A DNA stretch of 64,000 nt from positions 51,552 to 115,551 of IMG/VR virus record IMGVR_UViG_3300032286_001377. One strand, written 5' to 3'. The notes beneath the pieces are model-generated. The model ran no database searches. It was given only the letters and a program-made list of their open reading frames with translations, and was not told the origin of the DNA. Made by a program: the position numbers and the translations under genes. Positions 4,626 to 64,000 of the stretch are shown here, piece by piece; positions within the stretch are counted from its first letter, which is position 1; every line of letters starts with the position of its first letter. Source of the DNA: a virus.

Positions 4626-7600
4626 TTATTCTTCCCCAGAATCTGGACGTATATTGCTGTAATTAACTATATAATTTGGAGTAGTTCCAAAGAGTCCCAT
4701 CTGATACTGTTGTAGTCTATTTAAAGGAACCCAAGATGGAGGAATCCAATTTGGAGTACTGTTAACCGAGTAAACATCAATGCTATTATAATGCTTAACA
4801 ACAAAATTTGGAGTAGCAATAGGATTAGAATTCAACTGCGTTGCTGGCATAAAAGCCGAAGGCAATGCTGAAGCTTCGTTCGCATAGTGTATATTGTCAT
4901 ATTTTTCATTCCAATAAGCTATATCACCAGTTATAGTAATGTTAGAAGCCAAAACAGTTTCCCCTAATGCAGCCAGTTTTGTCTGTATCTGGTTTGCTGT
5001 TTCATTTATTTCAACGGAAACAAACCATATTCCTGGATCACTTGCATCGCTATAGCTATTTATAGTTTCAAAAATATTAAAATATCCATTTGAGTCAGTT
5101 TGAGTATACGAGTAGCTTGCAGTGTTGAAAAGGTCATAGAGAGTTCTAGCTTTTCTATATTTGATAGCAACAGAAGCCAATAGTGGATTATCTTTCCAAT
5201 AAATTTTTCCAACTATTGCAAGCTTGCTAATTCCATCTGTATCTACAGTAAATCTAAGTGGAGCCGCTTTAACTTTAAGATCAAAGGTTTTATCACGTAT
5301 AATCTTATATGTTAACTGCTGAGAATAGCCTTGAGTCATACTATTGGCCGAGCTATTAGGAGTGCTGTTGGATAGCCCATTGGGTGTAGCAGAGCCGATT
5401 CCAGAAATATTAATTGTTCCACTAGAAGTTGTTGACAATATAGAACCATTATATCTAACAGTTGTTTTAGCAAAACCATTATCATTAGTTGTCACATAAG
5501 GATCTGCTACCAAAATATCATTGCCACTAATATAGAAAGTTTGACCTGGTTTTAAGTTTCCATTTGTATCATAAGAGATAATAGATAGGTACATTAAATC
5601 ATTAGAGGAATCAGTAATAAAATTGGGAGACAGATAAGCGGAGATTGAACTGAAATTGAACTCATCTTTGGTAAGATAAACATATCCTTCACTAATTGGT
5701 GAGTCAATCTGACTTAAATTCAATCCACTATCAATAAAGTTATCCTTATATGAATTCTCATAAGTCACATAATAATATGAATTAGTTGAAGGCGTTGTAC
5801 TAAAGTACGCTTTGGACTGGTAGTCATCTATTGAACTATTATAAACATCATTCTCAACGTAGAATGCATCATTCACATAATAAACAACTTCATATTCTCT
5901 ATCTACAACAGATGGAGTTGCCTGACTAAAAGGCGAAATAACATTCGTACTGGAAGATAAGTTGCTAAATAACCGCTTACCAGTATATACATCAGTGACT
6001 GAAGCATTCTTGATATTTTGGTAAGACAGATAAAGAGAATTACTCTTTCGACCCAAAACTGTTTCCGTATTATAGAATGATCCATTACCTGGAGTAGATG
6101 AGTCCTCGAATACAAGATTTCTATACTCCTTACCTCCAACATTAGCGATAATGGGTGCACCTTTTCTTGGAGAATTTGGTAGAGTTAAATCAAAGAATCT
6201 TCCATTATATGTTGCTGTCTCAGGATTAACATAAATGTATTGATCTTTTTCCTTAATATAAATCCAACCAGCATTAACGCCTAATCTATAATCATTTCGT
6301 CTAACTTCATCTGCTTCTGAATATATATCAACTTCAACATTATTTAAGTCACTATCACCCAAACTAGGAACTATACCATCTACCAGATATTCTTTAACTA
6401 TTTTAATTTCTTGATCAGTTAAAACTCTTCTCCATATTGCCACGGCAGCCAATTCCATATCAGCATATCCTGAGTTGTTATAATACTGAGAGCCAATAGT
6501 CAGAGGAGTGTTACTGCTTAAAGTCCCTATAGTTGAGTCTGTAGCAGGGACGCCCATTGTTGTATTAGCGTAAACATAGGTAGTGTCTTTTGAAACATTT
6601 CTTATACCAGTATGTGCCATTAGTGACCCAGCAACATAACCTGGGTTAGATGCCCCTCCAGAACCACCTGCGCCTGATACGAAGTTTAGAGCAGCTACGC
6701 CAGTGTTTGCTTTAGAGAGGTAGTATCCACCAGTCGGATCCCACTTCATAATAAAGCGTTGATCTGTTGCAGGCACTGACCAAGATCTTGCTACAGCCAT
6801 AAGTGTAAATGAATCATTTAAACCGAAGTTCACAAGGTCATTATTGGGAATAATAAAATAATCTGCCGCACCAGCGTCTGCGCCAAAAATCCAAACAGAT
6901 CTACCACCATTAGCCTTAGATGGCATAACTACCATTCTACGACCAGTAGTTCCTCTATTCATAGTTACTAATTGGCCGGTATTGCAAGTAAAACTAACCT
7001 GTGCCGGATAAGTGATTGAATCAAAGTCAACATCTAAAACTGGATTACCAGCAAAAGAATCTGTATTCCAAATTTTTGCCCGATAATACTTTCCCTCAGG
7101 TCCAGCTAAGCCCGTATTAGAAGCTGCTATATAATTAAACGCAGCGTTCGAACGCAAAGACAATGCCGTACCACCAGGGTTAGCTGTTACAACAGTATCA
7201 AAAAGTGTCCAGTTTACGCCATCTAATGAAGTATAAAATTTCACGGTATGCTGGAAAGTTGTATTGTTTATTGTGAGGGTAGCGCCAAACCACGCCTTAG
7301 TTCCAATTGGAATATTATGACCCTTAGTGGCGTAAACTAAACGAGAAGTTGTATCCGCACTAGAGGTGTAAGAGAAAAACATATTAGGACCAGGGGGTGT
7401 GCCTCCATTAAATCCTATTGAGTAGTTAGTAACCGAACTATCTACGCCCGATTGTCTCTTTCCTATAAGAGCTTTAGGACTAGCTACATATGTCTCAAAA
7501 GGTCTAATCTGCACGGCTAATGCAATATTGCCAGTAATATCAGTAGACGACCCCACTGCTGATGGTATTGTGGCACCATTAGTGCCAGCTGAGATACTAG

Positions 7601-10600
7601 GTTGATAGAAATACCCTTTGTCCTCAACATCCAATAAGGTTGGATCAGTGTTAATCACATTGGTGCCATTAATCGTTACGACACTCTTATATATTGAATC
7701 TTCATTGAACTCAATTGTCCAATCTTTTTGCTTAGAAAAATCTGCATCAAAGACGGTAGGACCACCAATTCCGCCACGAATAATGACTCTATACAAAGAG
7801 CCATTAATTACACCGGCACCGCTGTCACGAGATCCAATTTCCAAATTACCCGTTGATGCAGGTAACGAAACTGTTGGATTTAAAGTTGTTGTTCCAACTA
7901 ATATCCAAGAATTCGGCTCTAAATCTTGACTTGAATAATTAGCATAAAAATTAACAATACCTGTACTTCTAACTCTAGTAATTTTTATCCACTGAGTTTT
8001 TCCAGCGATGATAGCTCCACTATATGTATCTATCTCTGACCAAAAACTTCCAGTCCAATATCCAAATTTAACCTTACTAGGATCTGGATTAGCAAGAAGG
8101 ACCCTATATGCTCCACTCTTTGAGAGAATGCTAACATCTGAAGTTAATGTATTTAAGTTTAATTTGAAAACTATTTCAATATCACCAGTAACATCAAGTC
8201 CATTATGATCATAAACACCTGCATAGTTGGATGTAATTCCAGGAAGATTAAGTGCACCATTTCGAATATGTGCTGAGCCAACATAAGACATAGAGCCAAC
8301 CTGTGCGTCTAATACTGTGCCACCAGTACCAAGGTTGCTTATCATCTGAGCATTAAATGAAGCCGACTTAGCGTCTAGGTAGAGGACCGCATCTTTAAGT
8401 GGCGTAACCTTATGGCTCAATGAATTAGGATCTGCGGCAAAAGCTGTATTCAAATCAGAAACAATTGCATCATTGCTATAGGTAAAAGAATCTATATAGT
8501 TAGGTGTAGTATTGAATTTAACCGAATCTACAATATAAGGAGTTGCAGCAGCTAGACCAAATGAGTTTCTATTTAAAGTAACTGTTTCTAAAAATTTATC
8601 TTCCAACAAGAATGAATTATTATATTCTTCCTCGTTCTTAAATACTCTATTATTTTCGTCCAAGAAACCATAGAAGGTATTAGGTGCGGTTTCTGCTTCA
8701 AAATGTTCATAATTAGTTCTAACAAAAGGATATAAAACGCTATCTTTTGTATAGACATCAATATAATAAGGAGTAGATGAGAAGTTGATAGTAGCTTGAT
8801 CAAAATAATCAGGACTTGCACTAACAGCTCCAGATAGATTACGAGGCTGCCATAAAATATTTGGAGAAGAAGGCACCAAATAGGTATCATCACTAATCGG
8901 ATCTGTCGAATAGCCACCAGTAGCCTCAACATTTGAAGAGCTACCATATGTAGGATATGATTTAATTTTATTAGGAGAAATAAATAAATACTGCGGAGTC
9001 GCCTTTTGATGCTTTAAAACTGTTTGCTTAACAAGTTCTTCTATTTGAATAAGCGCATTAGAAACTCCGCCAACATTTAAAGTATTTGGAGTATTTAAAG
9101 CAATAGTGCCTTTATAAGTGTCAGAATTAAAAGACGCCTGCTTAGTTACGTAAACATTTGAACCTAAATACAGACCCGCATTATATCTATCCAGATTAGG
9201 GGTAGACAAAGTCATCGTTGTACCAATTGTTGGATTAGATTTCCATATAGGTGTAGAACGACTAAAGTCTATCTTATAATTACCAACTGAAAGATTAGTA
9301 TATGTTGGACTAACGCCTGTTGTAGTTAATGACCTTCCAAAAATAACATTAATTGAAGCGGCCTCTGCAATATTAATGCTATTCTGCTTAGAAGTCCTTG
9401 TTGAATTGTAGTATCTCTGATTGAAAACCTTATCCCTGAATTCTAATTCAGCCAAAGTCATCCCTTGCTGATCAAATATTGGGATATAAGTGTACTCAGG
9501 GCTTGTTGGACTATTGGAAAGAAATTGATTACCTACAATAAAATCACTTCTATTATTATAGTTTAAATTTGCATAGAATGTAGATGGTGTAGCATAGTTG
9601 CCGTGGTTAGGCATGCTGATCTCATACACGACACCTGCTTGAACCTTTGACGAATCATAATCTGCAACTGTAGCAAGATAATTGAAATACCAAGTATAAT
9701 CTACTACTACTGGAGCATAAATTGTATTCGTGCTAATTGCTTTAAATCCAGAAATTTTAATGTTTCCAGAAAAAGAAACGGTTGAAGCTTCAGCTGGATA
9801 TATGTCCACCATCGCATCATCAAAGTCTCCAACTCCAGGCTGATAAAATGAACCCAATGGACTTGAAGCCTCATCATATACAGCTGGAATTCGAGAAACG
9901 CCCTCGCCATTTAACCCGGCATAATCCCAAAGTCCTTCATCCCACTTTACATAGCCAATGTTAGATGGATATTTAAAGTTGAGATCTTCAACTAACTGTC
10001 TGAACTGCTGGGTGGGTTGTCCTGCATCAGTGAAATATGGTGTAGAGTTTTCAATATCTGATATCTCTAATATTTCTGGAGTCGCACCTGAGTAATCTGA
10101 ATTTGGAGTAGCGCCATATGCTCTCCAAATGTCTAACTCTCGCCGCAGAGTACGCTTAAGAGCCTCATTTGATACCCCCGGCATATTTTTAGTTACATCT
10201 AAAATCCTTTTCTTATAATTAGAGTTAGATTCTAAATAAAGTCTTGGCAAGCTGACTCTTGCGCCAAACTCGTCAAAGTCATTAAAAATATTAATTGCTT
10301 CTTGGGTATATGAAATATCATTGACTTTAAGAGATGAAAACTGACGAAGAGTAAAAAGCTGTCTATCAACAGGACTATAATAGAAAGAATAATCGGTTGA
10401 TCTACCATCCATTAGATCTGCGAAAGATCCAACCCTGGCAAGCTGGACACTATCTCCTGATATTAAATTTATATTTTGAGGCACATTATATGCAACAAAC
10501 ATCCACGCAGTCATATCTTCATCTGCGCTAGCTATAAAAGAATCAATTGAATTTAATTCAACATCTGACTGATAATCGTCAAGACTTTCTTGTAGAATTG

Positions 10601-11300
10601 CAGTCAAAAACTTTCCACCAACAGACTGTGGAATAGCTAAAGAAGGAGTAGCAGGTTCGACAGAATCTTCAAAGATAGAAGTCCAGCTCGGAAATCTTTT
10701 TAATACGCTTCTAACAGAAGAGGAAATAACAGGTGAAACTGGATCATAAATTCCAACTTCTAAATAGAACAATAAACCAACTGAACTTAAATCAACATCT
10801 TGAGTAAAAATCTCTAGTTCAATCTTAACAAACGGTTTTGCATTCTTGATAAAAACAATATTAGAATCTGAAGAAACAGAAGATCTTAACCAGGGTCCAG
10901 CACTTGAATCGGATTCATAAAAGCTTATAGTAAAAGAAGGAACAATCACACCTGGAAGATTAGTGAAAGTATGACGATATGTAAGAATATCTATCCTGGA
11001 AGTAGTGTCAATAAATCTTCTCAATGAAGGAGTAGCTGGTTCGTAAATAACCTCACCAACATCTGTCTTATGAGTAACATTAGAACTATACGGAGTTGCA
11101 TGAATTCCAGTGTAAGACGGTGAAGTTACTTCAGTCCCAACATATGTTCTATCCCCTATAAGATTAAGACCATAAGCTGATCTGCTATAGGAATAGTTTT
11201 TAAATTGTGAATTTGAATATAGGTTAATAGGATTACTAGTCCAAATATTATTTGATTTACTAAAATCTGAACTTTTAAGCAGTAATAAATATTGCTTCAT
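4626..11300 (-). CDS. Giant baseplate (wedge-like) structural protein, 2224 aa, with inserted LamG/ConA-like domains
   Basis: FNDFDEFGARVSLPRLYLESNSNYKKRIL resembles the baseplate-wedge D-x-x-G...R...E-x-x-x-x-Y-x-x-R motif. The central ~6350-8430 segment has beta-sandwich repeats, and an Ig-like segment (YVTTNDNGFAKT) lies near the C terminus. It follows baseplate J. Confidence 0.65.
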   Translation of the reverse strand: MKQYLLLLKSSDFSKSNNIWTSNPINLYSNSQFKNYSYSRSAYGLNLIGDRTYVGTEVTSPSYTGIHATPYSSNVTHKTDVGEVIYEPATPSLRRFIDTTSRIDILTYRHTFTNLPGVIVPSFTISFYESDSSAGPWLRSSVSSDSNIVFIKNAKPFVKIELEIFTQDVDLSSVGLLFYLEVGIYDPVSPVISSSVRSVLKRFPSWTSIFEDSVEPATPSLAIPQSVGGKFLTAILQESLDDYQSDVELNSIDSFIASADEDMTAWMFVAYNVPQNINLISGDSVQLARVGSFADLMDGRSTDYSFYYSPVDRQLFTLRQFSSLKVNDISYTQEAINIFNDFDEFGARVSLPRLYLESNSNYKKRILDVTKNMPGVSNEALKRTLRRELDIWRAYGATPNSDYSGATPEILEISDIENSTPYFTDAGQPTQQFRQLVEDLNFKYPSNIGYVKWDEGLWDYAGLNGEGVSRIPAVYDEASSPLGSFYQPGVGDFDDAMVDIYPAEASTVSFSGNIKISGFKAISTNTIYAPVVVDYTWYFNYLATVADYDSSKVQAGVVYEISMPNHGNYATPSTFYANLNYNNRSDFIVGNQFLSNSPTSPEYTYIPIFDQQGMTLAELEFRDKVFNQRYYNSTRTSKQNSINIAEAASINVIFGRSLTTTGVSPTYTNLSVGNYKIDFSRSTPIWKSNPTIGTTMTLSTPNLDRYNAGLYLGSNVYVTKQASFNSDTYKGTIALNTPNTLNVGGVSNALIQIEELVKQTVLKHQKATPQYLFISPNKIKSYPTYGSSSNVEATGGYSTDPISDDTYLVPSSPNILWQPRNLSGAVSASPDYFDQATINFSSTPYYIDVYTKDSVLYPFVRTNYEHFEAETAPNTFYGFLDENNRVFKNEEEYNNSFLLEDKFLETVTLNRNSFGLAAATPYIVDSVKFNTTPNYIDSFTYSNDAIVSDLNTAFAADPNSLSHKVTPLKDAVLYLDAKSASFNAQMISNLGTGGTVLDAQVGSMSYVGSAHIRNGALNLPGITSNYAGVYDHNGLDVTGDIEIVFKLNLNTLTSDVSILSKSGAYRVLLANPDPSKVKFGYWTGSFWSEIDTYSGAIIAGKTQWIKITRVRSTGIVNFYANYSSQDLEPNSWILVGTTTLNPTVSLPASTGNLEIGSRDSGAGVINGSLYRVIIRGGIGGPTVFDADFSKQKDWTIEFNEDSIYKSVVTINGTNVINTDPTLLDVEDKGYFYQPSISAGTNGATIPSAVGSSTDITGNIALAVQIRPFETYVASPKALIGKRQSGVDSSVTNYSIGFNGGTPPGPNMFFSYTSSADTTSRLVYATKGHNIPIGTKAWFGATLTINNTTFQHTVKFYTSLDGVNWTLFDTVVTANPGGTALSLRSNAAFNYIAASNTGLAGPEGKYYRAKIWNTDSFAGNPVLDVDFDSITYPAQVSFTCNTGQLVTMNRGTTGRRMVVMPSKANGGRSVWIFGADAGAADYFIIPNNDLVNFGLNDSFTLMAVARSWSVPATDQRFIMKWDPTGGYYLSKANTGVAALNFVSGAGGSGGASNPGYVAGSLMAHTGIRNVSKDTTYVYANTTMGVPATDSTIGTLSSNTPLTIGSQYYNNSGYADMELAAVAIWRRVLTDQEIKIVKEYLVDGIVPSLGDSDLNNVEVDIYSEADEVRRNDYRLGVNAGWIYIKEKDQYIYVNPETATYNGRFFDLTLPNSPRKGAPIIANVGGKEYRNLVFEDSSTPGNGSFYNTETVLGRKSNSLYLSYQNIKNASVTDVYTGKRLFSNLSSSTNVISPFSQATPSVVDREYEVVYYVNDAFYVENDVYNSSIDDYQSKAYFSTTPSTNSYYYVTYENSYKDNFIDSGLNLSQIDSPISEGYVYLTKDEFNFSSISAYLSPNFITDSSNDLMYLSIISYDTNGNLKPGQTFYISGNDILVADPYVTTNDNGFAKTTVRYNGSILSTTSSGTINISGIGSATPNGLSNSTPNSSANSMTQGYSQQLTYKIIRDKTFDLKVKAAPLRFTVDTDGISKLAIVGKIYWKDNPLLASVAIKYRKARTLYDLFNTASYSYTQTDSNGYFNIFETINSYSDASDPGIWFVSVEINETANQIQTKLAALGETVLASNITITGDIAYWNEKYDNIHYANEASALPSAFMPATQLNSNPIATPNFVVKHYNSIDVYSVNSTPNWIPPSWVPLNRLQQYQMGLFGTTPNYIVNYSNIRPDSGEE

Positions 11301-17563: not shown

Positions 17564-20500
17564 TTAATTAGATACTGATGTCGGCATTGGTAGAGAATCA
17601 TTGGCATCAATAACGGAAGATGACTCTTTTTGTAAATCTTTCACAAAGACTTTTGCTAAGTTGTTGACAACTAACTCCCAATTTAAAGTAACGGGATGTC
17701 CATCAGGGAAATATTCATCCCAACTTACCCTAGGCCATTCGGATGCTTTGTCATATATTTCTTCTAGTACTTTAAAATAAACAAATCTAGAATAAAGTTT
17801 CCTTTGATCATCTGTAAGTAAATATAGACTATCCGCATCATTTTGAATATTAAAATATTCGTCATTAATTATTGACTCTACGCTTTCAAAAATTGAATCA
17901 AACTTTGTGAAGAAAGCTGATTTGTCATAGATGTCATTTTTTAGCTTGTCTTTAATTGATTCAAGAGCTGTCAAATTAGATCTAAACAAATTAGCAACGT
18001 ACGACAAAATATTGTCAATTTTTTCTTGAGGCAAATAATAAAATATGGTTGCCATAACACGTGATCCAGTTACATCGCCCTCATTTTCCCTGTCTCCACT
18101 ACCAAAAATATCTAGCTGATAATTTTGAATTGTATTAAGTTGACTTCCGGCTTCGAAATCTTGTTCAAGTACAGCTTTTCCGCCAATTGCATTGGAGCCT
18201 TCAGTTCTAGTCTGATTTATTCTTAAAACAATTAATTTATTTTCTAAAGCTTTCTTTACGAAAACTTTTGCTTTACCACCAGGAGTAGAAATATCTAAGA
18301 AGCTCAAATTTGTTGGATTTGTACTACTAGGATAATCAACTGTACCTTGTATTGTATTTGTTTCTGCTGCGTTAATACCATCAAAGCGAACTCTAAAATT
18401 TACCCCAGATATAATATCCGTGACATCGATTGTGTCACCGTCTAAAACTGAGTTAACTTGACAGATAACTCTGAATTGCCATTCAAAACCAGCTTTTTCT
18501 GGACCAAGACCAGATAACTTAAGAACCTGCGCATGAACTAGTGCTGACTCATAACTAATGTGTCTGTAGATATCATTAATAGCTACCTCATTCCAACCAA
18601 GGCTCTTAAATAGATCGTCACTTCTAATAAATGAATTCCCTTCTGGAGTTCTAGCTTTTACTCTTGTTCCAAGAATTCCAGGGAGAAGCGCCTTACTATG
18701 ATGCTGGCCTACCACCATTCCTTGATTATAGGACAATCCAGCGTCCATAGGCTGACCGTTCTTATTGAGATATTGTACATAACACCCATGTTGGTCAAGC
18801 ACATTATCTCTCACCCATTTCCAACCCTTCCAAACAAGTTGACCAATTCCAGGAAGCACTTGAGCCATAATGGCAAAAGTTGGAACTCCACCACCCTCTT
18901 CTTGACCTGCAGCATTGAGAAGTGAGCTATTGACGCCTGGAGCAATCATTGCTGTTTGATTTGCCATTATGTCTTTAACAAGGGCTGACGAACCATGGGT
19001 AAATTGGAATCCGCCAACAATTTGAGTAGTTAATATTTCACCTAATCTATCAACAGAAATATTTCCGCCAAAAGATAAACCTGAATTAGCATTTCTAATA
19101 TTGTCAATATAAATTCTGGCGTCATTTCTAACATTCTGAACGTGCATCCAAGACTGCATCCAGGATGTCATAAACCATCTTGCAGGATCATTAACAGTAA
19201 CTAAAGCATTAGGTGTAATAGAGGTAATGAATCCAAGTTCAGGAGTGAAATGATGAATGACTTGTTCTACTTCAAAAATCCCATACATTCTTTCATACAC
19301 ATCAGAAAGATACACTAAGTCGTGAGGCCTAATGTCACCATTCCCTATAACTAATAGCTCTCCACCATAAATATCTTTAATTGATTCCTTAAGGTGCGAT
19401 AATGCAACTCTTCTAGCACTCAGTTCATCTGGAGCACCTTGAATAGCTTTTGCTACACCTCTAAAGGTTTCCATCGGATGCATAAGTGGATGTAAAAACC
19501 CAGTAAAACCAGATCCAACTATATTATCAAAATAAAGACCAGTTTCTACTGTTTTTTCAACCTGCCTTTCAGCAGGCGCGCCTTTATCTAAAGCTACTGT
19601 CACTGGATATTTTCCATCAGATACGGCTGTTATTTGTGTCGCCACATTATTTAAATTTTCTTGAATCTGATTAGATAAAATATGAGAAAAAGAACTGATG
19701 TAATGAATTCTTTGAAATGGCTCTCTAATTTCAACTACTGGCTCACCGTATTCGCGAGTGAAAGGATTATCTACAGCTCTTAGAAGTGTTCCTGGTCGAC
19801 CAAGAGAATAATAAATAGAATCATTTAATGCTTTGTTTAAAATATTTGCTTGCTTTTTAAAGTTTCCAACTTCAGACAATGCATAACCCAACTGTTGCAT
19901 CGTTGTTTTGAACATTGATATTAAACCAGAAAGTGCATCACCGACAGCAGAAACGATTGGACCAATGGTTCTTGATGCAAATTCGGAAACATCTGAAACT
20001 ACTTCAGAAAAATAAGTATTAGAACTATTACCCTCCCCTCTAGTGCTGACTAATAGTTGCAAAAACTTTGCTTTCTTACTTGGCTTTGCATAGTCTGAAT
20101 TGGGATCAATATACGCTCTAAATACTTTATCTACAGGCTTAAAAGACCATCCGTCATCAGCGCTAAACCAACCGGCTTTCTTATCTGGCTTCAAAACCAA
20201 CCATGCTCGCGCATATGGGTCTTCCCACAGTCTCTGCCTAAATAATCCAACCATTAAAAGGAATAACTGTTTTGGTGTTTTAATATTCTTTTTTAATATA
20301 TCTGAAACATCAATAACCGCATTATCGTCTTTATTTGAAGCTTCTATACTAAAATGTAAAACACTTAAAACACTTTCTCCAGCAAAAAAACTTTCATAAA
20401 TTTTAGCTAAATTTTTAGAAAAAATATTATTAAAATAAGATAAGAGACCACCTTCATCCAAGGGTGCGTCTATATAATTTTTTCTCATAAATTCAATGGC

Positions 20501-23500
20501 TTCTGAATAATCTTTACTAGGATTAGAAGAACTAGAGCCACCGCCACCACCATAGTCTGAGCCAAATAATATCGCAAATTCATCTTGGGCGCTATTATTT
20601 CCTGCCCCAAAGTACTTAAATGGATCATTAACATCTTGACCAGATATCATGTTACTAAATTCTGGTGGAAATTCTTCTTCTAAATCTGGATCTAATCCAT
20701 AAACATCAAAAAATATTCTTTTAACACTTTCATAGTTATGATATTCAGCCCTGAAATAGTCCCATATATCTTGCGCTTCTCTATTTGTTCTACCATTACC
20801 GGCAATAACGCTAACGCTAGTGTCAAAATTTTCGTCAAAATAACTTCTTGCCTGAATACTAACAATATCTGAAGGATCATAAACGGCAGAGAAGGACGTT
20901 CTTACATCCTCTGCTTCTCTCCTCTTTTTAAGCTCTTCTGATGTCAGAGATGCAGTATCTTTATCTATTGCTAGTTGAAAATAACTTTTACCATCTTTAA
21001 CATTTAAAGCATTTCCGCCAAACGCAAGAGCATCTATCGCAGATTGAAATTCTGAATTATAGGGAGCATACCAATCAAAAACACTATTTGATTTACCTAT
21101 TGCATTAACTACATCTATTGCTTCGCTGCCTATTTCTCTAGCAATATAATCTTGTCCCTCATTGATTTTAAAATTTCCAAACCCAACTATATACATACTT
21201 TCACTTTCCGCTACAGTATCCAACTGATCTTCAGTAGCGGCATTTTGTAATTTAAACTTATTAATAGGAAGAACTGTAGTGCTTATGACTCCGACTGGAA
21301 TATCATCTGGAACAAATGAGAACATACATTCTTGAGGTATAGGTGCAGTCCTATATCCTGAATCTAGCTCTGCAAAAAATTTAATTCTATTAAAACCATT
21401 GACATTAAATGTCGCCTCATCTGCTTGTAACATTGGGAAATTCAATGCATCAAGTGTAGAATCACTTTTCTCTAAAAGTCTTTTTGCTTCAGCAGAGGTA
21501 TAAGTTATAACACTTAAATAGAACGCTGCATCGGGGGAGACTAAAGCCGATAATTCATTGCCATCAATGTAGTTTGCATCAGAATTAGGAATAACGGCTT
21601 GAATATCTGAAGTGAGATTTTCTTTACCCCACATGAAATATGCTGGCTTGCAAACAACAGCTCTACCATTGTTAGGGTTATAGACAAGAACTTTACGTTT
21701 TTTATAATCTTCTGCAGTACCGTATAGATTAGTGAATCCATATTCTGATTTAAATTTACTTAGTGTGGCATCGTCTGCTTCGCCAGAAGGATTGTATGGC
21801 CATTTCATAGCAATGTAGAATTGTTCATCTTCAGGAGTTTCTGGAGCGCCCCACTCTCGATATGTTAGCTCTCCATAATTGTCTTTTTGATATTCAAAAC
21901 TAAATGAATCTGGATCATCATTAATCTGTTGAATAGATATATTACCACTTAAACCACCTTCAGACGTAAGACCTATCTGTGGTAGTGGCATAATAATTTT
22001 TTGATCCTCAATTTGAATAATGCCCTCTATCTGATCATAGAGCGGAGAAAAATCCAATGGTGAATCAAAGTTCACAGTACCCTCTATATCCCCTCCGACA
22101 GAGGGCATCAGTGAGAACTTAGTTTTTGCATAGAAGTCTAACTCTAAATTAATAACATCATCTAAACCATGATAAGTATTAGCGTTAACCCCCTCTTGCA
22201 ACACTACCCACCCCTGCCTCATTTTAACTGTGCTGGAGTTCTCTAATTTATATTTTTCAGTTACCGTAAAAAATGGAAAACCATACCTTGGTGGCAAATT
22301 GCCTATCTGCTTGTGTAAAGTCTTTTGACTTTCCATAGTAGATTCTGTAAAGAAGGCCTCACTATTTGAAGCTTTCATGTCCCTAGTTATAATTGGAAGG
22401 TGAGGGCCAATGCCAACCATACCTTTGCTAACTGGAAGTCTTGCAGATATTTTTGCTCCAGATTCTAAATCAAAATATTGATAAGCCTGTGGAGAATAAA
22501 AGTTAATTAATCTACCAGTAAAAAATTTAGTAGGAGAATAAATACCAGTAGATTCTGTTATCGCTTTTGAAACAGTTTGAAATGATTCATTAGGTTCAAA
22601 TGACTGAAAGAACTTCGCGTAATCTGCCAAAGGATTACTATCCTTATTTATTGTTTCTAAAATAGTATTTAGAACTTCATCTGGCCCTAGAGGTCTTGGC
22701 CCTGAAGAGGTTCCATCTTCTCTAGCTTTTTTCTCTCCAGAAAAACCAGTAGTCACTGGAACTACACCTGAAGTGTAAAGCCAATGTGGTTTACCATAGA
22801 ATACGGTAGACCTATCCTCAAATGGGCGTACCGCAACAATATAATTAGGAAGTAATCTTGCACAAATTTGGAACATATCCCAAACAGTTCTCATATATGT
22901 TTGTGCCCTAAATGATACCTCGTCAAATCCTGGAAGATCATCATCAGCATTAGGTGCAAGTATGCCCATTGTTTTAAAAATACTAGTTCCACCACGACCG
23001 CTCAACACTCCAAGTAGGCCAAGACCAGCAAGTGCGCCAGCAGCTGGGCCAGCTAAAGCTGCAGTTATGCCAGTCATACCAATACCTATCGCACCCTGAA
23101 CAAGGCCCGACCTGCCCTGAGCTTGAATTAGCTTATTGGATGCTGTTAAGTTTTCAATTGTTTCTTTGGCTGAAGAATCATTTTGCTGATACTTTTCCAT
23201 CAACTTATTATAGGTTATATCGGTTAACCTACCGAGATATCCTTCAGTTCTATCATTATATGATTCTTCGGGAACTAAAGATGATGCCGTAGACCAGCCA
23301 TCATCAATATCCCCTCCCATGAACTGTGCAATTCCGAGACCGTTTCCAGCATAGATGTTTCTCTTAAATATCTCAAGATCTGTTTGAGCGCTGAAGTTAG
23401 CCCACAATTGTCCAATAAGAGGAACAATGCCACCTCTTAAATTTGAAGAAAATCCCTCTGGTACAGACTGGCCACCACCAATATAGGTGAATGCTGCGCC

Positions 23501-28588: not shown

Positions 28589-28596
28589 TAGTTACC

Positions 28597-29037: not shown

Positions 29038-29049
29038 CTAATTCCAATC

Positions 29050-46592: not shown

Positions 46593-49500
46593 TTAAACTC
46601 CAGGTCCAGTAGATATTGCAAAATTAATTTGTCTTAATCCAAGTGCTGCTAAAAGTTCAATATGAAAAATTAGTTTCCCTGATGTTTCTTGACTAACCTC
46701 AACATTAAAAGCAAAATCTAAAATTATATTATTTTGTCTTAAAGAATTTAGATAATCCCTAACCCTAGATACAACTTTATCATATCCAAATTTCCCAATT
46801 GCCTCATAAGAGAATCCTCTGACCTCACTAACAACTCTTGCAACTAATCTCATTTGAGATGCTTTTGATAAGGTTGATAAACTGCTAGCCATCGTGTTTT
46901 CATTGCTAACATAGACTTCAAAAGGAACGGATCTTCTAGTCTTCTTTCCTCTATAAACAGTATTGATTCCCAATGAATCAAGTCTGTTCATTTCTATCTG
47001 AGCAAGATCGGCACCAAAGACTGCCGTAGCTCCTTTTACTCTAGTTCTAATCAATCCCATATTCATTGGAGCAGCTGATAGCATCCCAGCAAAAGCTGCA
47101 GCCATCGAAGATGGATATGAACGCTTTAATTGCGCATGCTGATATATAACTTCTCCATATATTGGAATTACAAACCTTCCAATATCAGAAGTAATATTTC
47201 CATCAAGAGGACTATATTGTGTGAACTTATTAACAAAAAGTGGATTAGAAGCTAACTCTTCAACATCAGAAGAAGATATTCCATTAGACCTAGAACCAAT
47301 AACTCCAAGCTGCACGTAGCCAGTATCATTATGGAAACTACTAAGATAATTAGCTAGCTGTGTAATAAAGTCAACCCCACCCGTAGCTAAAATTGAGGCT
47401 TCTAGTGGAACAACATAATCGACAAAATCTAATTCACCAATCACTGAATACGTCGCAGCCAAACGTTGATAGTATTTTTGATAGAAAGTATAACTAGCAG
47501 GTGTCGCAGCTGCTAAGTCAAATAAAATAGTAGAAGAAATCCTATCAGCTGGTTTATAAACATACTCAGACATAGGCGCAACTGCACAAATAATAATATC
47601 TCTTGCACCAGCCTCATACGCATCAAATACACCACGTAGAAGAGGACTATCTAAATCGGCTCCAAGCAAATCGATTGCACTTTGAACAGACCTAATCCTA
47701 ACCGGATCATTAAGCCCAATCCCATCAGCGTGCCCCAGTAAAAGCACCGTGCTAGTATTAGACTGATTTAACTCTTGATAAAGAGGTTTGTAATTAATTA
47801 CGGCAGACTTGTTCGACCCAGCAATGCTGGGAGACAAGGTGGCTACCGAGCCTTTAACCTGAAATTGTGAGACAATATTAATATCAGTTAGATCGGTAGT
47901 TGTTTGTGCAATAATTGAATAGTTTGCTTCAAAAAAAGTTGTTGGAACTGTATAATTTAAAGTAAATTCGTATTTATTTGTTCTCTCAATAAGAGATGTG
48001 GCCCTAGATGAAGGAGCTATTGCCGCAGAACCCCTTAGAGTCCAAGTATTATTGTATTGATCAACATAAGAAGTCTTACCAAAACTATATTGATACGGAG
48101 CAAAATCTGCAACAGTTGGTCCATCAATTCCATTTCTAATAATCGCCCTATACATTTTGCCATTCATAAAATATTGAGTAGCGTTGTTGAAGCCACCTAT
48201 TTCCACTTGTGCTGTTCCAGGAAATAGACTAAGCGAATATGTGCCAATGGCGTCAGTTAAAAGAGTCCATGATACAGGCTCATCGGTCTGATCCTGCGCA
48301 TAATAAAACTTTACCCTATACCCACCAGTTGAGTCCCTGGATGCAAGTGTGGCCTTAATCCAATATGTTCTACCATCAATGAAAGTGTTAGCCATAGTTC
48401 CAGCTGGAATTGCTGCTGAGAATAGATTCTGTCCATCATAAGATAAAAATAGTCTTATAACACTTGACTCCATAGCTAATAAATAAGATCTTAAAGGAGT
48501 AGCATTATAATACTTTCCTATAAAAGTTTGATTAGTAGTTGGATTTGTCCAATCTGTTAGAGAAGCTCTAACTACTAATTCAAGATCTCTATTTCTTTCA
48601 ATTCGTGCGACTGTGCCAAGTGTATTTACTGTAAGGTTGTTTCCAGAATTTTCAATAAAAGAAGTTGCAAATTGTATCTGCCTAGTAAAATTGACATCAA
48701 GAACTTTAGTGCCACTACTAAATGCGTTTCGTGCAATTACCCGATAAAATCTTCCTGAAGACGCATATCCGTTAGCTTGTTCCGAATAGGCGCCAATGAC
48801 AAAAGGCGTATCACTATTGTATAGTGTGCCAGATGTTCCAGGAATAGCGCCGCCAACATTGGTCCATGTTGTTGGTTCTACTTCTTGATCTGCTGCATAG
48901 TCGAAAAACCACTGTCCAGAAGATGAATTCCTTCGATACCTGAACCAATAAGTCTTCCCATTCACAAATGGAGATACTGTTGCTCCCCAGTTTGGCGTTA
49001 AAATTGTACTATTATCAATAGTATAACTGGCAAACATTTTTCCAGCTGTGTCGATACCTAAAAGGTATGATCTACTAGGACCGGTATTTGTGTATTTTCC
49101 AACAAAACACTGATTAGAAGCATTAACGTATTTATCTAATGTAGCCCTTATAGTTACCTCAAAATCAGATAAATCCAAATAGCTTAGACTTGGAGCGGTA
49201 GCATTATCGGTAACGGACCATCCACCAGCAACTGTGACGCCTGTCCGAGTACCATATGTTGTCCCATCAACAATTTTAGCTATTGAACCGGAAACTGTAA
49301 CAGTTTTTCCTGTCGACTCCGAGAAAGATGATGATCCGATAGTCTTTGAGGTAAAGTCAATATCAACTATCTCTGCACCATCGATGCCGTTTCTTACTAT
49401 TGCTCTATAAAATTTTCCTGAACTAAAGTTTGAAGAACCAGAAAAAGCTGAACCAACTTCAACTGGTGCAGTTGCATTATAAATTGATGTTATAAAACCT

Positions 49501-50186
49501 AGAGCAGCAGGTTGAGCACCAAGATCATTCCATGTGGTAGGTTCTGTCTCACTGTCTGGTGCATAATAAAATTTTACCTGACATCCTCCAGAATTATTAT
49601 TTATATCTAAAGTAACCTTTAACCAATAGGCAACTCCGTCACCAAGAGGTATGAGTGGAGTACATGATCTACTTTGTGCTGATGCAACAGATCCAGTTGG
49701 CCACCACTCAAAAATGTGAATGCCATTAGTTTGTACACTCCACCTGAATTTCCTATTAGGATCAGATTGAGTCGCAGCAATTAGGCAATTGCTAATAGAA
49801 GAAGGAGTCCAGTCATCTAAGGCTACCCTACAAACAAGCTCTATATCACCAGCAACATTTAACGCAGTAGAATGTGGGACTGACACATAATTTCCAGTCA
49901 CTCCAGGAAGACTCAAGAATTTAATACCTTCAGCACCATTGATATCAAGAAAATTTGAATCTGGCGCAGAAATATAACTACCAGAAATACCAGGTAAAAC
50001 TGCGTATGAATCCTGCTTAATAAATGAAAATGGTCCATCAACAATAGGACCATTCCCGTTATCGCCTCTTACTACAGAAAAATAAATATCCGAAGCCTCT
50101 GTGCCGCCAGTTGGATCGTAAACTTGACTATCTGATGTAAATATAAACTTAAATTTTGCTGTTTGACCTTTATTTAAAATTAACAT
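46593..50186 (-). CDS. Tail-sheath paralogue fused to an Ig-like domain and three LamG/ConA-like domains
   Basis: The C-terminal ~390 aa mirrors the sheath (SPLLRGVFDAYEAGARDI vs SDLHRAFLELVIAGAERV; LDSLGINTV vs LSNKGVNTV). Three D(I/F/L)E..R..LD..YW....FYYA.D..EP..W..G..YR.I.RN repeats. Start placed at MLILNK, coupled to the upstream stop (ORF track gives 50210). Confidence 0.72.
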   Translation of the reverse strand: MLILNKGQTAKFKFIFTSDSQVYDPTGGTEASDIYFSVVRGDNGNGPIVDGPFSFIKQDSYAVLPGISGSYISAPDSNFLDINGAEGIKFLSLPGVTGNYVSVPHSTALNVAGDIELVCRVALDDWTPSSISNCLIAATQSDPNRKFRWSVQTNGIHIFEWWPTGSVASAQSRSCTPLIPLGDGVAYWLKVTLDINNNSGGCQVKFYYAPDSETEPTTWNDLGAQPAALGFITSIYNATAPVEVGSAFSGSSNFSSGKFYRAIVRNGIDGAEIVDIDFTSKTIGSSSFSESTGKTVTVSGSIAKIVDGTTYGTRTGVTVAGGWSVTDNATAPSLSYLDLSDFEVTIRATLDKYVNASNQCFVGKYTNTGPSRSYLLGIDTAGKMFASYTIDNSTILTPNWGATVSPFVNGKTYWFRYRRNSSSGQWFFDYAADQEVEPTTWTNVGGAIPGTSGTLYNSDTPFVIGAYSEQANGYASSGRFYRVIARNAFSSGTKVLDVNFTRQIQFATSFIENSGNNLTVNTLGTVARIERNRDLELVVRASLTDWTNPTTNQTFIGKYYNATPLRSYLLAMESSVIRLFLSYDGQNLFSAAIPAGTMANTFIDGRTYWIKATLASRDSTGGYRVKFYYAQDQTDEPVSWTLLTDAIGTYSLSLFPGTAQVEIGGFNNATQYFMNGKMYRAIIRNGIDGPTVADFAPYQYSFGKTSYVDQYNNTWTLRGSAAIAPSSRATSLIERTNKYEFTLNYTVPTTFFEANYSIIAQTTTDLTDINIVSQFQVKGSVATLSPSIAGSNKSAVINYKPLYQELNQSNTSTVLLLGHADGIGLNDPVRIRSVQSAIDLLGADLDSPLLRGVFDAYEAGARDIIICAVAPMSEYVYKPADRISSTILFDLAAATPASYTFYQKYYQRLAATYSVIGELDFVDYVVPLEASILATGGVDFITQLANYLSSFHNDTGYVQLGVIGSRSNGISSSDVEELASNPLFVNKFTQYSPLDGNITSDIGRFVIPIYGEVIYQHAQLKRSYPSSMAAAFAGMLSAAPMNMGLIRTRVKGATAVFGADLAQIEMNRLDSLGINTVYRGKKTRRSVPFEVYVSNENTMASSLSTLSKASQMRLVARVVSEVRGFSYEAIGKFGYDKVVSRVRDYLNSLRQNNIILDFAFNVEVSQETSGKLIFHIELLAALGLRQINFAISTGPGV

Positions 50187-50187
50187 A

Positions 50188-50559
50188 TCACTTCTCTCTT
50201 GATGCGCCAACAGTCCAAAAAACTATTTTTCCCAACTTACCTCTAACCGCAGAAACAGCATTAATTCTATACATTGTATAATTTTTATGATTTTTCATAG
50301 AATAATTTTCATATATCCTATCCCCTTCTTTAGGGTAAATCTCTGCTTCAAAATAATAAACAGCATCATATTTAGTAATAAGACCATCTGCTTGCTCTTT
50401 TGTAGAAAGTGTATTAGCTATACCAGATTGGCCAACCTGTCTTGTGGTAACTCTTTCCAAAGAATTTGAATGATTTCCATTTGCTAACACCCTCTGAATA
50501 TGAACATCGTGACCCCAATCACGCATAATTTTCCTAAAAGATCTTTTCGCATCAATCAT
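50188..50559 (-). CDS. Putative head closure/stopper protein
   Basis: 123-aa beta-rich protein (WGHDVHIQR..YYF..PKEGDRI..YRI..V) following the adaptor-like gene. Confidence 0.6.
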   Translation of the reverse strand: MIDAKRSFRKIMRDWGHDVHIQRVLANGNHSNSLERVTTRQVGQSGIANTLSTKEQADGLITKYDAVYYFEAEIYPKEGDRIYENYSMKNHKNYTMYRINAVSAVRGKLGKIVFWTVGASREK

Positions 50560-51798: not shown

Positions 51799-52014
51799 TT
51801 AAAATGTACCACCATCAATTGTTCCATTAGCAAATCTATCCGCAACGGTAATGTGAGTCCCAGATGGATTAGCCCCAAGCTCAGTCTCGATTGCTTCGAT
51901 TGCATCATTGGCATTAGTGTGTTGCAAATTGTGCGGAACAACAACAGAGTCTAAAAGATCGCTGGCTTCTGGATTGTTAAAATTGTCTATTGAGTTAGGA
52001 TAATTTGTAGGCAT
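51799..52014 (-). CDS. Small virion protein resembling a fibre N-terminal attachment module
   Basis: MPTNYPNSID..H...H..ANDAIEAIETELG resembles a common N-terminal motif of phage fibre proteins; ends in IDGGTF. Confidence 0.55.
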   Translation of the reverse strand: MPTNYPNSIDNFNNPEASDLLDSVVVPHNLQHTNANDAIEAIETELGANPSGTHITVADRFANGTIDGGTF

Positions 52015-52787
52015 CAGATTCCAACCTCGGCAGAAACTATAACTTTATATTTGTAACCAGATTCAAAATAATCCTTACCGTCTATATAATAGACTGGAGT
52101 CGCTTCTATCGACGGAAAATCAATATAAACTATAGGCCTCCAAGAATGCATAGAGATCTGAGTCTCAACTTTTTCCCAACGGGCTGGAGTCTTTTGAATT
52201 TTTTTTCGAAGTACCTTGAAATATTGAGAAGTCATAAAGTTTGATGCTGGTCTAACATTGAAACTAATTATTACTCTTCCATTATTTTCATCTTGATTTA
52301 TATAAAATTCTCCAGAACTAGGAGAGACTGATTCAATATAAAAGTTAGGATTTTTTGCTAAAATTTGATATCCGGTTTCGATGCCCGATCTTACAGATTT
52401 ATCCTCAATAAGTACTTCATTAACAATTGTACCTTTTTGCCCCTCCAGTTGAGTTGGGGTAGCAGATTCGACAGCTGAAGTAAATTTAATTTTCTCTTCA
52501 TCAACAACATAGCCTGAAGAGTCAACTATATTAACTGCCCTAATAACATAACTAGTGTTACTTGCTAAAATAGCGTTCCAGTATAGAGTTAATGTACGAT
52601 TAATCTGATTATAATCAGTTAATGTTTGGATTGTTTTAAACGGAGAAGATATTTGCGAAGGAGTTGCAGAATCGGTTTGAACTATAAAATTAGCATTAAC
52701 GAGGGACGATATCTTAACCGTTCGTCCAAATTTTATGACAACAGTGTTAGTGCTAACTATTGCATTATCGATAAGATATAAAGCCAT
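52014..52787 (-). CDS. Ig-like domain virion protein (head/neck decoration)
   Basis: Two beta-sandwich segments (VVIKF..NFIV..TLTL..LASNTSYVI; IESVSP..VIISFN..YKYKVIVS); follows the MCP terminator. Confidence 0.55.
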   Translation of the reverse strand: MALYLIDNAIVSTNTVVIKFGRTVKISSLVNANFIVQTDSATPSQISSPFKTIQTLTDYNQINRTLTLYWNAILASNTSYVIRAVNIVDSSGYVVDEEKIKFTSAVESATPTQLEGQKGTIVNEVLIEDKSVRSGIETGYQILAKNPNFYIESVSPSSGEFYINQDENNGRVIISFNVRPASNFMTSQYFKVLRKKIQKTPARWEKVETQISMHSWRPIVYIDFPSIEATPVYYIDGKDYFESGYKYKVIVSAEVGI

Positions 52788-54031: not shown

Positions 54032-54802
54032 TCAGAGTGTGAGATTGACACGGAATGCGCCAATAACATTTGTTACGTCCAGGTTTGCACGAATACCAAG
54101 CTTGCCGCTGTAGGTACCGGTACGGGTTAGCTCATATACAGTCTTCAATGCACCTGGATCTGAAGGAAGCTGCATGTAGCTGAGTAAACCATCATCGAAA
54201 TTGGTAGCGAACTTCTCAACTTCAATGACCTTGCCAACCTGAATCCACGGATATGTGCCAGCATCGCTTGTGCTAAGTGCTACTGGACGACCCATGTTGT
54301 CGGCGCGGACTAGACTTCCAACGGCTACGTCAGCATTAATGCCGTTAACCATTGGATACTCTACGTATCCGTGAGTGATGAAACCAGCACCCTGGGAAGT
54401 GCCCTTATCAAAAGGACGGTAGAGATCATACTGTGCACAACCAATCGGCACTGAGTAGGCGGGAACGCCAGGGTTAACCTGATCTGTTGCGCCAGAAGAA
54501 TATGCCGGTGTAGCACCATTCATGGGATCCCATCCGGTAGCGTTACCGTTGTCGCCCCAAACCTTAGCAGTGCCGGTACCATTAGCTGGAACGATACGAG
54601 CATCGCCACTAGCGTCTGCATAGACAGAAAGAATGGTACCCTTTGGAATTACGATTTCAAAACGATCATCTTCACTGTCAAGATACCAGGTTGGAAGACC
54701 TGGGTGAGGCAGGAGGTAGGCGCTGGGGGCTGTACCCTCAGAGACTACAAACCGACCTGCACCAGTTTTTGTCCCAACTTTACGAAATTTTGCTAAACTC
54801 AT
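54032..54802 (-). CDS. Capsid decoration/cement protein
   Basis: Between scaffold and MCP, higher GC like MCP; VIPKGTI..PIG.A.YD..GSLVRADNMGR..QVGKVI is a beta-tulip-like pattern. Confidence 0.65.
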   Translation of the reverse strand: MSLAKFRKVGTKTGAGRFVVSEGTAPSAYLLPHPGLPTWYLDSEDDRFEIVIPKGTILSVYADASGDARIVPANGTGTAKVWGDNGNATGWDPMNGATPAYSSGATDQVNPGVPAYSVPIGCAQYDLYRPFDKGTSQGAGFITHGYVEYPMVNGINADVAVGSLVRADNMGRPVALSTSDAGTYPWIQVGKVIEVEKFATNFDDGLLSYMQLPSDPGALKTVYELTRTGTYSGKLGIRANLDVTNVIGAFRVNLTL

Positions 54803-59211: not shown

Positions 59212-59228
59212 CGTTTACTCCATATAAA

Positions 59229-59685: not shown

Positions 59686-59697
59686 CGGAGGTAGAAA

Positions 59698-62562: not shown

Positions 62563-62568
62563 ATAGTA
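62563..62568 (-). promoter_or_regulatory. Candidate promoter TACTAT upstream of the tail fibre
   Basis: Same hexamer in the TACTATTATAT context, also seen at 59668. Confidence 0.4.
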
Positions 62569-62611
62569 TTCAACTATCAATTAGATTTATATAAAGATAT
62601 AACAAACATAA

Positions 62612-64000
62612 TTATACTAATTCTGCTTTAAAACCAAGATAAGCTCCAGCAGTGTTAGCATAAAAATTAGTAGCACTACCGACAGTTAACGTGGCGCCAG
62701 TGGTAATTCCGATGTAAGCACTATTCGTCCATGCAGTAACAATACTGGGAACACTAGTCGCCACAGTCCCACTACCGGCAGCATTTGTCACTGCATAATC
62801 TCCAGCTGTTCCGGTAGTCTCTAATGGGCTAACTGGAGTATCTCGCATAGTTACAGGAAAATGAACCGGTACACGAGCTGTAGTTGTTGTTGGAGTAGCT
62901 CCACTACCAAATACTCCAGAAGAAACACCTGGTGCCATACGATAATAATATCTTTGACACCGACCAAGCTGCACATCATAAGGAAGAATTTCAAATGGCG
63001 TGGCAACAGACCCTTGTTCAAGTTGAAATCCCCAAAAATCAAAAGTTCCAGATTGCTGCCCAAGAGAGGCCGTACGTGTAGCGTATGTAGATCCAGCGTC
63101 CATCCAGAATATGACGCCGAGATAATCATCACCATTAGTTCCGAGAGTTTTACCACTGATTGAAGGTATAGTTACTGTGATAGATTTACGAACCCACGAA
63201 GTTGTCAGGGCAACAAGTTGCGAACCTATTGAATCCACTGTGGTTGAAGGAGTGCCTCCGTTTCCGAATGACTGCCCAAACTCCACAGCGATATTCTTTG
63301 ACGCATCAGCTTTAGCCCAGAAGGACAGTGTCACTGTCTGATTAGCAAATGTTCTGACACTTTCGATAGGGAAGAGGAACGATCCACGATTGGAAGCTCC
63401 TGCCACCGACGTGACCACTGCACGTAAATAATACGTCGGTTCATAACCGGCAATAGCATTACCGAGGGCAAACGACTGCCGCGTAATGGAACTAGTCGTT
63501 CCAGCATTCGATGACCGTACCCGATCTGCGGAATAGTCACTACCTCCAGCAAAGGCGCCAGCGCCTCGCTGCCACACCCTCAAGTCACCATTGGGAATTA
63601 CATTTTTAAATGAATCTCCAGAAGTAAAAGTAACACTTTCGCTTACTGAACTTGTTGTTATAGTCATTCCACTACCGGCAACAAACGTAACAGTGTCATT
63701 AGCAGTATTAGATGCCACGTTACTTTGTCCAGAAACTGCAATAATTCCGTAAGCACTAGAGACTGGGCCTGTTGGACCAGTTGGGCCGGTCACAGTTGAG
63801 GGTGCACCGGTAGCACCGGTAGGACCAGTAGTACCGGTTGGGCCAGTAACTGTCGAAGGAGCGCCAGTAGCACCAGTGGGACCTGTTGGACCAGTGGCAA
63901 GTGGGCCTGTTGGACCAGTTGGGCCGGTCACAGTTGAGGGTGCACCGGTAGCACCGGTAGGACCAGTAGTACCGGTTGGGCCAGTAACTGTCGAAGGAGC
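62612..64000 (-). CDS. Collagen-like fibre protein with C-terminal carbohydrate-binding-like head; 5' end beyond the window
   Basis: GPT/GAT triplets stay in frame to the window edge. [39 protein letters not shown] is a common phage fibre domain. Confidence 0.82.
63764..64000. repeat. 138-bp-period direct repeat in the collagen coding region
   Basis: 63764-63862 is identical to 63902-64000 (99 bp, cut by the window edge). Confidence 0.92.

Follow-up and report, generated by a model that had tools for sequence, protein, structure and literature searches.

A three-residue tag, [A>S>T]-Thr-Pro, recurs far above expectation in a chosen set of virion proteins encoded by a 64,000-nucleotide stretch of viral DNA (IMG/VR record IMGVR_UViG_3300032286_001377, positions 51,552 to 115,551; hereafter the window). 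Judged by its conservation among homologues, it appears to be a short linear signal under purifying selection in one clade of aquatic jumbo myophages related to Bacillus phage 0305phi8-36. The tagged set comprises the core of a 2224-aa baseplate-distal protein, a 257-aa protein with immunoglobulin (Ig)-like domains, a 256-aa decoration protein, two tail proteins of 283 and 1205 aa and, in part, the tail sheath (Table 1). The enrichment is real, clade-wide and maintained by selection. The explanation favoured here, to which we give an even chance, is that the tag serves as an O-glycosylation acceptor signal for glycosyltransferases (GTs) encoded by the phage; we infer each of its three parts, namely a modified Thr, a sugar as the modifying group, and the identity of the enzymes that attach it.

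Enrichment of the tag in selected virion proteins

The 2224-aa protein contains 11 copies of the tripeptide Ala-Thr-Pro (ATP; aa 68, 89, 217, 397, 406, 570, 767, 919, 1794, 1971, and 2162), along with seven STP (aa 419, 682, 699, 842, 1735, 1979, and 2181) and three TTP (aa 931, 1835, and 2206). Composition predicts 0.62 ATP, and none of 2000 residue shuffles reached 11 (Poisson P = 7.6e-11). ATP is the most enriched tripeptide of the protein, followed by TPN and STP, and survives Bonferroni correction for 8000 tripeptides across 88 open reading frames (ORFs). Thr-Pro (TP) is preceded by A, S, or T in 21 of 25 cases, against a combined content of these residues of 26% (TP-conditioned binomial, P = 2.9e-9). 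All of the counts claimed in an earlier note on this sequence were reproduced, the excess of ATP held against shuffled sequences, and an artefact of composition was ruled out by the residue shuffles, the Poisson test over all tripeptides, and the TP-conditioned binomial. The note had further proposed a short signal selected at the protein level, which is upheld by the variation of codons between sites, the lack of a repeat, and the conservation of the motif as a unit. A repeat at the level of DNA was rejected on the codons, with Ser encoded by both TCN and AGY, and an internal protein repeat because self-comparison gave no off-diagonal match at E ≤ 10.

The tag is retained by every one of the 114 homologues of the 2224-aa protein, which reach down to 29% identity (E ≤ 2e-75) and carry 7–26 [AST]TP each. 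In the 115-sequence set that includes the query's own record, ATP totals 1319 against 39.5 expected and 2155 of 2497 TP (86%) follow A, S, or T. A 115th match (P0115), the only tag-poor homologue, comes from a smaller phage of an unrelated type; it was considered as a contrast and set aside as uninformative. Two cores are common to the family, one N-terminal (aa 1–931) and one C-terminal (about aa 1735–2224), and all 21 sites of the window's protein fall within them. The sites are positionally conserved, with T and P usually the best-conserved residues locally, and the motif Thr has a conservation of 0.66 compared to 0.30 for other Thr (p = 0.0004), Ser being the main substitute.

The 257-aa protein carries three ATP (aa 41, 109, and 229; nucleotides 52659–52667, 52455–52463, and 52095–52103) against 0.04 expected (0 of 2000 shuffles). 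Across the family of 121 sequences ATP totals 220 against 5.6 expected, and at the ATP sites A is conserved in 88–98%, T in 98–100%, and P in 100% of sequences, with flanks at 26–57%; conservation of the motif Thr is 0.99 versus 0.66 for other Thr (p = 0.009). The 256-aa protein has one ATP (aa 97, 54506–54514), kept in 76 of 76 clade loci, and divergent members have 'GATP'. Two ATP lie within the last 23 residues of the 283-aa protein (aa 261 and 279; p = 0.0015 in the window) and are conserved in 39 and 38 of 42 loci, respectively. The 1205-aa protein also has two (aa 570 and 902; p = 0.042), of which the one at aa 902 reads ATP in 40 of 45 loci, and 72% of TP in its family are [AST]TP. The two ATP of the sheath (aa 141 and 249; p = 0.036) differ in distribution: of 39 loci, 22 have ATP at site 141 and nine have DSP or SSP, and site 249 (44867–44875) appears to be a recent gain because it lies in an insertion that the window shares with its closest relative (L001) alone. 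A scan of the tagged proteins against Pfam and NCBIfam returned no families.

Table 1. Features of the window, with the ratio of observed to expected ATP in the corresponding families (unique ORFs from 168 clade loci; counts are phylogenetically redundant). GT, glycosyltransferase; MCP, major capsid protein.
Feature	Position	Strand	Assignment and remarks	ATP observed/expected
2224-aa baseplate-distal virion protein	4626..11300	-	21 [AST]-T-P sites	
Three giants (3674, 1661, 2213 aa)	17564..40673	-	untagged controls; region also holds a 146-aa ORF (28597-29037) between the first two	
Tail sheath, 423 aa	44348..45619	-	sheath PHROGs	5.8x
283-aa virion structural protein (p283)	45739..46590	-	matches phrog_20284	24x
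1205-aa protein upstream of sheath (p1205)	46593..50210	-	matches phrog_5313; 'sheath paralogue' of the earlier note	12.7x
257-aa protein, two Ig-like domains (p257)	52014..52787	-	adjoins MCP; probable head decoration or fibre	39.5x
MCP, 357 aa	52924..53997	-	identity to 0305phi8-36-like MCPs; untagged in the window	1.9x
256-aa protein between protease/scaffold and MCP (p256)	54032..54802	-	head decoration by synteny (place of 0305phi8-36 gp124)	9.5x (97 of 102 TP tagged)
Protease/scaffold, 528 aa	54821..56407	-	by position (synteny with 0305phi8-36 gp123 and KLEB27-3 gp014); untagged control	1.1x
GT-A type GT, 259 aa	56500..57279	-	between portal and protease/scaffold; candidate enzyme	0x (0 of 107 TP tagged)
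Portal, 554 aa	57547..59211	-	phrog_9232; untagged control	0.2x (8 of 165 TP tagged)
Collagen-like fibre, 439 aa	62612..64000	-	ORF runs off window and contig end; Pfam Collagen, CBM_4_9, tail-fibre PHROGs	
p699				2.5x
p300				0.8x
All other ORFs			equals baseline of GT-less lineages	2.2x

That the pattern arose by chance or from composition is vanishingly improbable. The single ATP sites of the 256-, 699-, and 211-aa proteins are not individually significant in the window, nor are the two of the 439-aa collagen-like fibre (aa 310 and 345, outside the collagen part; p = 0.07). Against this stand the probabilities of 7.6e-11 and 2.9e-9 obtained within one protein, the replication in 114 homologues and 120 p257 relatives, and the absence of the enrichment from non-structural ORFs, the 48 of which on the contig are at baseline (2 ATP versus 1.37 expected; 4 of 25 TP after A, S, or T).

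Several structural proteins are likewise free of the tag. As the earlier note stated, there is no ATP in the three giants of 3674, 2213, and 1661 aa, nor in the portal, protease, major capsid protein (MCP), or tube proteins of the window; the portal, MCP, and tube-region proteins lack any [AST]TP. For the giants the absence of ATP is not significant by composition (0 versus 1.4 expected, P about 0.25). Their TP, however, follow A, S, or T in only 2 of 25 cases, a far lower share than in the 2224-aa protein (21 of 25; Fisher, 7e-8). Some lineages have gained single sites in the MCP (L172, L173, L183, and L178). The GT encoded between portal and protease/scaffold (0/107 TP) and the portal (8/165) are nearly devoid of A, S, or T before TP, compared to about 30% in GT-less lineages, in counts that are phylogenetically redundant; this pattern may represent avoidance of the tag.

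Consensus, predicted structure and lineage turnover

Based on 2021 unique contexts, the consensus reads [D/E]-[S/G/A]-[A 65%, S 27%, T 8%]-T-P-[N/S]-[Y/F/L/I]-[L/V/I/F]. The flanks are conserved below the protein mean, such that the motif forms an island of conservation, and as Ser is the main substitute for Thr the hydroxyl is kept. The placement of the sites was explored with AlphaFold2 models of the 257-aa protein (predicted local distance difference test, pLDDT, 78.6) and of residues 1–1000 of the 2224-aa protein (pLDDT 80.9), with exposure judged from secondary structure and pLDDT as opposed to being computed. All 16 modelled sites, three in the 257-aa protein and 13 N-terminal in the 2224-aa protein, are predicted to lie in loops, where the earlier note had expected them, and those of the 2224-aa protein occur both in beta domains and in a helical region (sites 217, 397, 406, and 419). 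The best Foldseek match of the 257-aa model is to the Ig domains of the S-layer protein SbsC, and the N-terminal 1000-aa model of the 2224-aa protein has no meaningful match (TM ≤ 0.07). The linker of the Ig-like domains in the 257-aa protein (aa 106–145, 52367–52472), which starts with the ATP at aa 109, is strongly conserved and has a pLDDT <50; it probably becomes ordered only when bound to the capsid.

Divergent members of the clade, with MCPs 65–79% and p257 homologues 27–40% identical, carry the tag at new positions and on proteins without detectable homology to the tagged proteins of the window. A 1618-aa protein of one such lineage (L173) has 11 ATP against 0.83 expected, the MCP of another (L172) has gained an ATP, and in a third (L182) three of three TP are tagged in the p300 homologue and a small protein has two ATP. 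The claim of the earlier note that unrelated virion proteins acquired the tag independently is thereby borne out, in different lineages and on non-homologous proteins, and the occurrence on such proteins at new positions argues against a motif specific to one fold. In the p257 homologue of genome G005 (L184, 11280–12071), which has the GT, five of six TP have lost the preceding A, S, or T (e.g., DATPVY to DDTPVY), which reads as partial decay of the tag in one protein. The spread and decay between lineages fit a signal read in trans better than a fold-specific structural element.

Glycosyltransferases and the candidate modification

The candidate enzyme encoded in the head module is a predicted GT-A type GT with the DxD motif SLDSD (aa 112–116, 56932–56946), invariant in 15 clade sequences, together with the likewise invariant GEDxGW and PHIM. 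The family has 948 representatives; of the 40 inspected, nearly all keep SLDSD, even at about 29% identity, and a few have SLDTD. A profile of the GT matches COLGALT1 in its N-terminal GT-A domain (E about 3e-9), with DSD placed on DAD. The window's GT scores 18.2 bits against Pfam Anp1, below the curated cut-off of 28.8; at E ≤ 0.01, seven of the 15 clade GTs match Anp1 and one matches Glycos_transf_2. Look-alike clusters of the GT in the atlas are viral, are named GT25 N-terminal / Glyco_tranf_2_4, and carry PF13704. The head-module GT is syntenic in every sampled clade locus that reaches the portal. Outside the window, its own contig holds three further GT2 genes, and all four of the large clade genomes have 3–5 GT2 genes each.

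The tag and these enzymes occur together. None of five outgroup genomes (four complete isolates) has a PF00535, PF13704, PF00534, or A4-family GT, and in each of the four outgroup isolates with annotation the protease comes directly after the portal. Head-module ATP reaches 5.7x expectation in 48 GT-positive loci versus 2.0x in 62 GT-negative loci, and the sheath and p283 homologues of GT-less lineages have ATP at baseline. The KLEB27-3 homologue of the 2224-aa protein (gp042, which follows baseplate J) aligns across the flanks of sites 397, 406, and 419 and has none of the three. Relatives without the GT thus lack the tag, as the earlier note predicted, whether outgroup genomes, KLEB27-3 gp042, or GT-negative loci are considered, and from the outgroup homologues (KLEB27-3 gp042 and the GT-less sheath and p283) it follows that the same folds do not need the motif.

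If the tag is an acceptor signal, its Thr would be O-glycosylated in the host cytoplasm by the phage's own GTs, that is, by the head-module DxD GT-A enzyme and/or the three GT2 enzymes, one of which would initiate and the others extend the chain. In a fuller version, the clade would run its own cytoplasmic, sequon-directed O-glycosylation, in which one GT would read [A/S/T]-Thr-Pro where loops expose it and another two or three would extend the glycan, to give about 20 glycans per baseplate-distal protein and several on the head-decoration and tail proteins; we place this scheme slightly below an even chance.

A number of observations weigh against glycosylation of the tag. The first concerns the untagged surfaces. 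The LamG-like 803-aa insert of the 2224-aa protein (aa 932–1734) has no sites (P = 7e-6 at core density), and fibre-region proteins encoded just upstream of the window (a 2089-aa LamG fibre and proteins of 1835, 877, 734, and 713 aa) are also without the tag. Because of these the tag is not a general mark of the outer surface, and the contrast drawn by the earlier note between outer and internal proteins does not hold; nor does its picture of a coated virion, given the untagged MCP and tube proteins. The second concerns the co-distribution. All GT-positive genomes form one clade, and therefore the association is effectively a single phylogenetic contrast of that clade with the rest; no tag-less or GT-less member was found within the clade among 42 MCP-sampled loci.

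The third concerns the GT family. The archaeal myovirus PhiF1, a Methanobacterium virus, has a GT homologue (ORF15, L170 14903–15610; 27% identity) that starts the head-gene block upstream of the capsid gene, a placement that suggests either an old head-module association of the family or convergence, and none of its 29 proteins, three large fibre proteins included, has the tag. Likewise, 28 loci of other phages with GTs 28–35% identical have nine ATP against about 22 expected and no tag. Since these homologues occur without it, the tag tracks the GT set of the clade and not the GT family. In one of these 28 loci (L255, 10001–12849), from a smaller phage, the GT belongs to a run of three GTs flanked by a ribonucleotide reductase and a thymidylate-synthase-like gene; the setting resembles one of nucleotide or DNA modification, and the family could thus have a different substrate. 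Within the window itself, the collagen-like fibre, with its (G-P-T)n repeats, interspersed GAPSTV, and a carbohydrate-binding-module-like C-terminal part, is an equally good candidate substrate for the head-module GT; (GPT)n is the type of repeat that is O-glycosylated on Thr in Bacillus BclA. The proposal of the earlier note that the head-module GT is the best candidate enzyme goes beyond the evidence: the tag is restricted to the clade that carries this GT, but the GT is one of at least four in the phage and its homologues occur without the tag.

The last of these observations is structural. Five of the 13 N-terminal sites in the 2224-aa model are at, or no more than three residues before, the start of a beta-strand and two more fall just after the end of one, so that a strand-capping role is conceivable. 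An unmodified recognition or structural motif is the principal alternative, unlikely in our estimation and still the strongest of the rivals. The tag could then, for example, cap a strand at its junction with a loop (a Ser/Thr-Pro turn) or act as a docking peptide for a clade-specific assembly partner, chaperone, or decoration protein, and the GTs would act elsewhere, for instance on the collagen-like fibre, DNA, or host glycans. The strand-proximal sites, the aromatic or aliphatic residues at +3/+4, and a positional conservation resembling that of structural residues would all be accounted for, as would the untagged phages with distant GT homologues and the resemblance of the GT to a collagen glycosyltransferase domain in a phage with a (GPT)n fibre. 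What such a motif explains poorly is that homologous outgroup folds manage without the tag, that it occurs in loops of helical as well as beta domains, and that it spreads to non-homologous proteins across lineages. About 20 sites on one chain follow no obvious docking logic, and the interchange of Thr and Ser combined with a strict small residue at -1 looks like the specificity of an enzyme.

Two other modifications were considered alongside glycosylation of the Thr. The first, which is improbable, is that the Pro is hydroxylated by a phage 2-oxoglutarate (2OG)-Fe(II) oxygenase and the hydroxyproline is then glycosylated, for which the hydroxylation and glycosylation of a Thr-Pro in cytoplasmic Skp1 and the [A/S/T]-Pro glycomodules of plants are parallels. 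Pro is the most invariant position of the motif, and three of five clade genomes have two genes of the prolyl/lysyl-hydroxylase type PF13640, about 1 and 5 kb from GT2, where four of five outgroups have none. In the near-complete relative L169 (G002:C1:46000-58000), GT2, the two PF13640 2OG-Fe(II) oxygenases, and a Trp halogenase (E 1e-90) form an island. This setting is one of auxiliary genes of a kind common in aquatic phages, which counts against a dedicated role in the tag, as does the failure to find PF13640 in G000 (55% complete) or G005 (75% complete); moreover, the conservation of the Thr hydroxyl through T/S interchange would be left unexplained. The second, proline-directed phosphorylation of the Thr or another small modification, is more improbable still. 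The S/T-P core is the classic motif of proline-directed kinases, but a search of five clade genomes, of which two are 92% complete, found no gene of the Pkinase family, the requirement for A, S, or T at -1 has no explanation on this account, and kinases of this type are not known from either phages or the bacteria that they infect.

Phage lineage and comparison with known systems

The window covers the final 64 kb of a viral contig of 115.5 kb (CheckV completeness ~55%) from an uncultured aquatic phage with a genome of ~200 kb. Its MCP is 38–42% identical to the MCPs of Bacillus phage 0305phi8-36, KLEB27-3, WH1, Edson, and Moorella phage MTATph1, which makes the phage a distant relative of the 0305phi8-36 jumbo-myophage lineage; closer relatives are found among hundreds of metagenomic contigs. 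The large genes of the window are all on the minus strand and together constitute a myophage structural module. In the order of transcription, it starts with the collagen-like fibre (439 aa), a 699-aa tail fibre, the portal (554 aa), an 89-aa ORF, and the GT (259 aa), and continues with the 528-aa protease/scaffold, the 256-aa decoration protein, the MCP (357 aa), and the 257-aa Ig protein. These are followed by neck genes, the 1205-aa protein, the 283-aa protein, the sheath (423 aa), and genes of the tube region, and finally by the giants of 2213, 1661, and 3674 aa, the baseplate genes (a baseplate-J wedge among them), and the 2224-aa protein. A 403-aa protein encoded between that wedge and the 2224-aa protein (11316–12527, minus strand) matches the 'exonuclease' phrog_284 (E 8e-44); the structural region of MTATph1 likewise has a 'DNA repair exonuclease'.

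Among phages, experimental evidence of virion glycosylation is known only from a few mycobacteriophages, and no sequence rule for the sugar sites is described in PMC12363180 or PMC12619734. If the tag is indeed glycosylated, it would amount to a portable glyco-tag of three residues and to the first sequon defined for the virion glycosylation of a phage. It would make glycosylated virion proteins predictable from sequence in very abundant lake phages (hundreds of contigs), provide a minimal enzyme-plus-tag pair for cytoplasmic glyco-engineering in bacteria, and render the function of virion glycans testable outside of animal immunity, including protease protection, stickiness, and the tuning of host range. 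If it is unmodified, a tripeptide kept some 20 times over within a single protein would still be striking and would need another explanation.

The closest precedent is the virion O-glycosylation of mycobacteriophages Che8, Corndog, and Myrna by phage-encoded GTs, for which glycans are reported at the C-termini of capsid and tail-tube subunits and no sequon is described (PMC12363180, PMC12619734). In both cases phage GTs are encoded in or near the structural genes and virion proteins are the presumed substrates in the host cytoplasm, and the two sites in the C-terminal tail of the 283-aa protein, the only tagged protein with C-terminal sites, recall the C-terminal glycans of the mycobacteriophages. 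In contrast, the MCP and tube proteins are untagged here, a defined tripeptide is dispersed in predicted loops of a giant baseplate protein and of proteins decorating the head, and neither the host phylum nor the phage lineage is related. A second group, the uncultured aquatic jumbo 'moraphages', has four core orthogroups of GTs whose target is unknown, with virion glycosylation cited as one possibility (PMC12619734). Like the present clade, to which they may or may not belong, they have several conserved GTs; PMC12619734 reports no sequon or motif analysis.

Among solved structures, the best relative of the head-module GT is the GT-A domain of the procollagen galactosyltransferase COLGALT1/GLT25D1 (PDB 9evj, 9u7h, and 8zgc). 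Only about 100 residues align, the phage GT is a single 259-aa domain, and COLGALT1 acts on collagen hydroxylysine, whereas the tag and the (GPT)n fibre are without Lys. The tag also differs from the O-glycosylation sequon of Bacteroidota, D-(S/T)-(A/I/L/V/M/T): Thr is always followed by Pro and preceded by A, S, or T, and Asp is enriched only at -3 (16%). Glycosylation in Bacteroidota is periplasmic and virions assemble in the cytoplasm.

In its sequence preference, the tag may be likened to mucin-type O-GalNAc acceptor sites, where the preferred Thr has Pro at +1/+3 and small residues close by. Common to both would be an acceptor Thr in apparently exposed loops that has Pro and Ala/Ser/Thr as its neighbours, but the mucin-type enzymes are GT27 of the eukaryotic secretory pathway and have no strict sequon, unlike the strict Pro at +1 and the cytoplasmic action that phage enzymes would have here. 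In its logic, the proposed system would resemble that of chlorovirus PBCV-1, whose Vp54 is glycosylated by virus-encoded cytoplasmic GTs at atypical sequons. That system is N-linked and acts on the major capsid protein of a eukaryotic virus; the likeness would lie in a virus-encoded, host-independent machinery directed to a virion protein by a short, non-canonical sequon.

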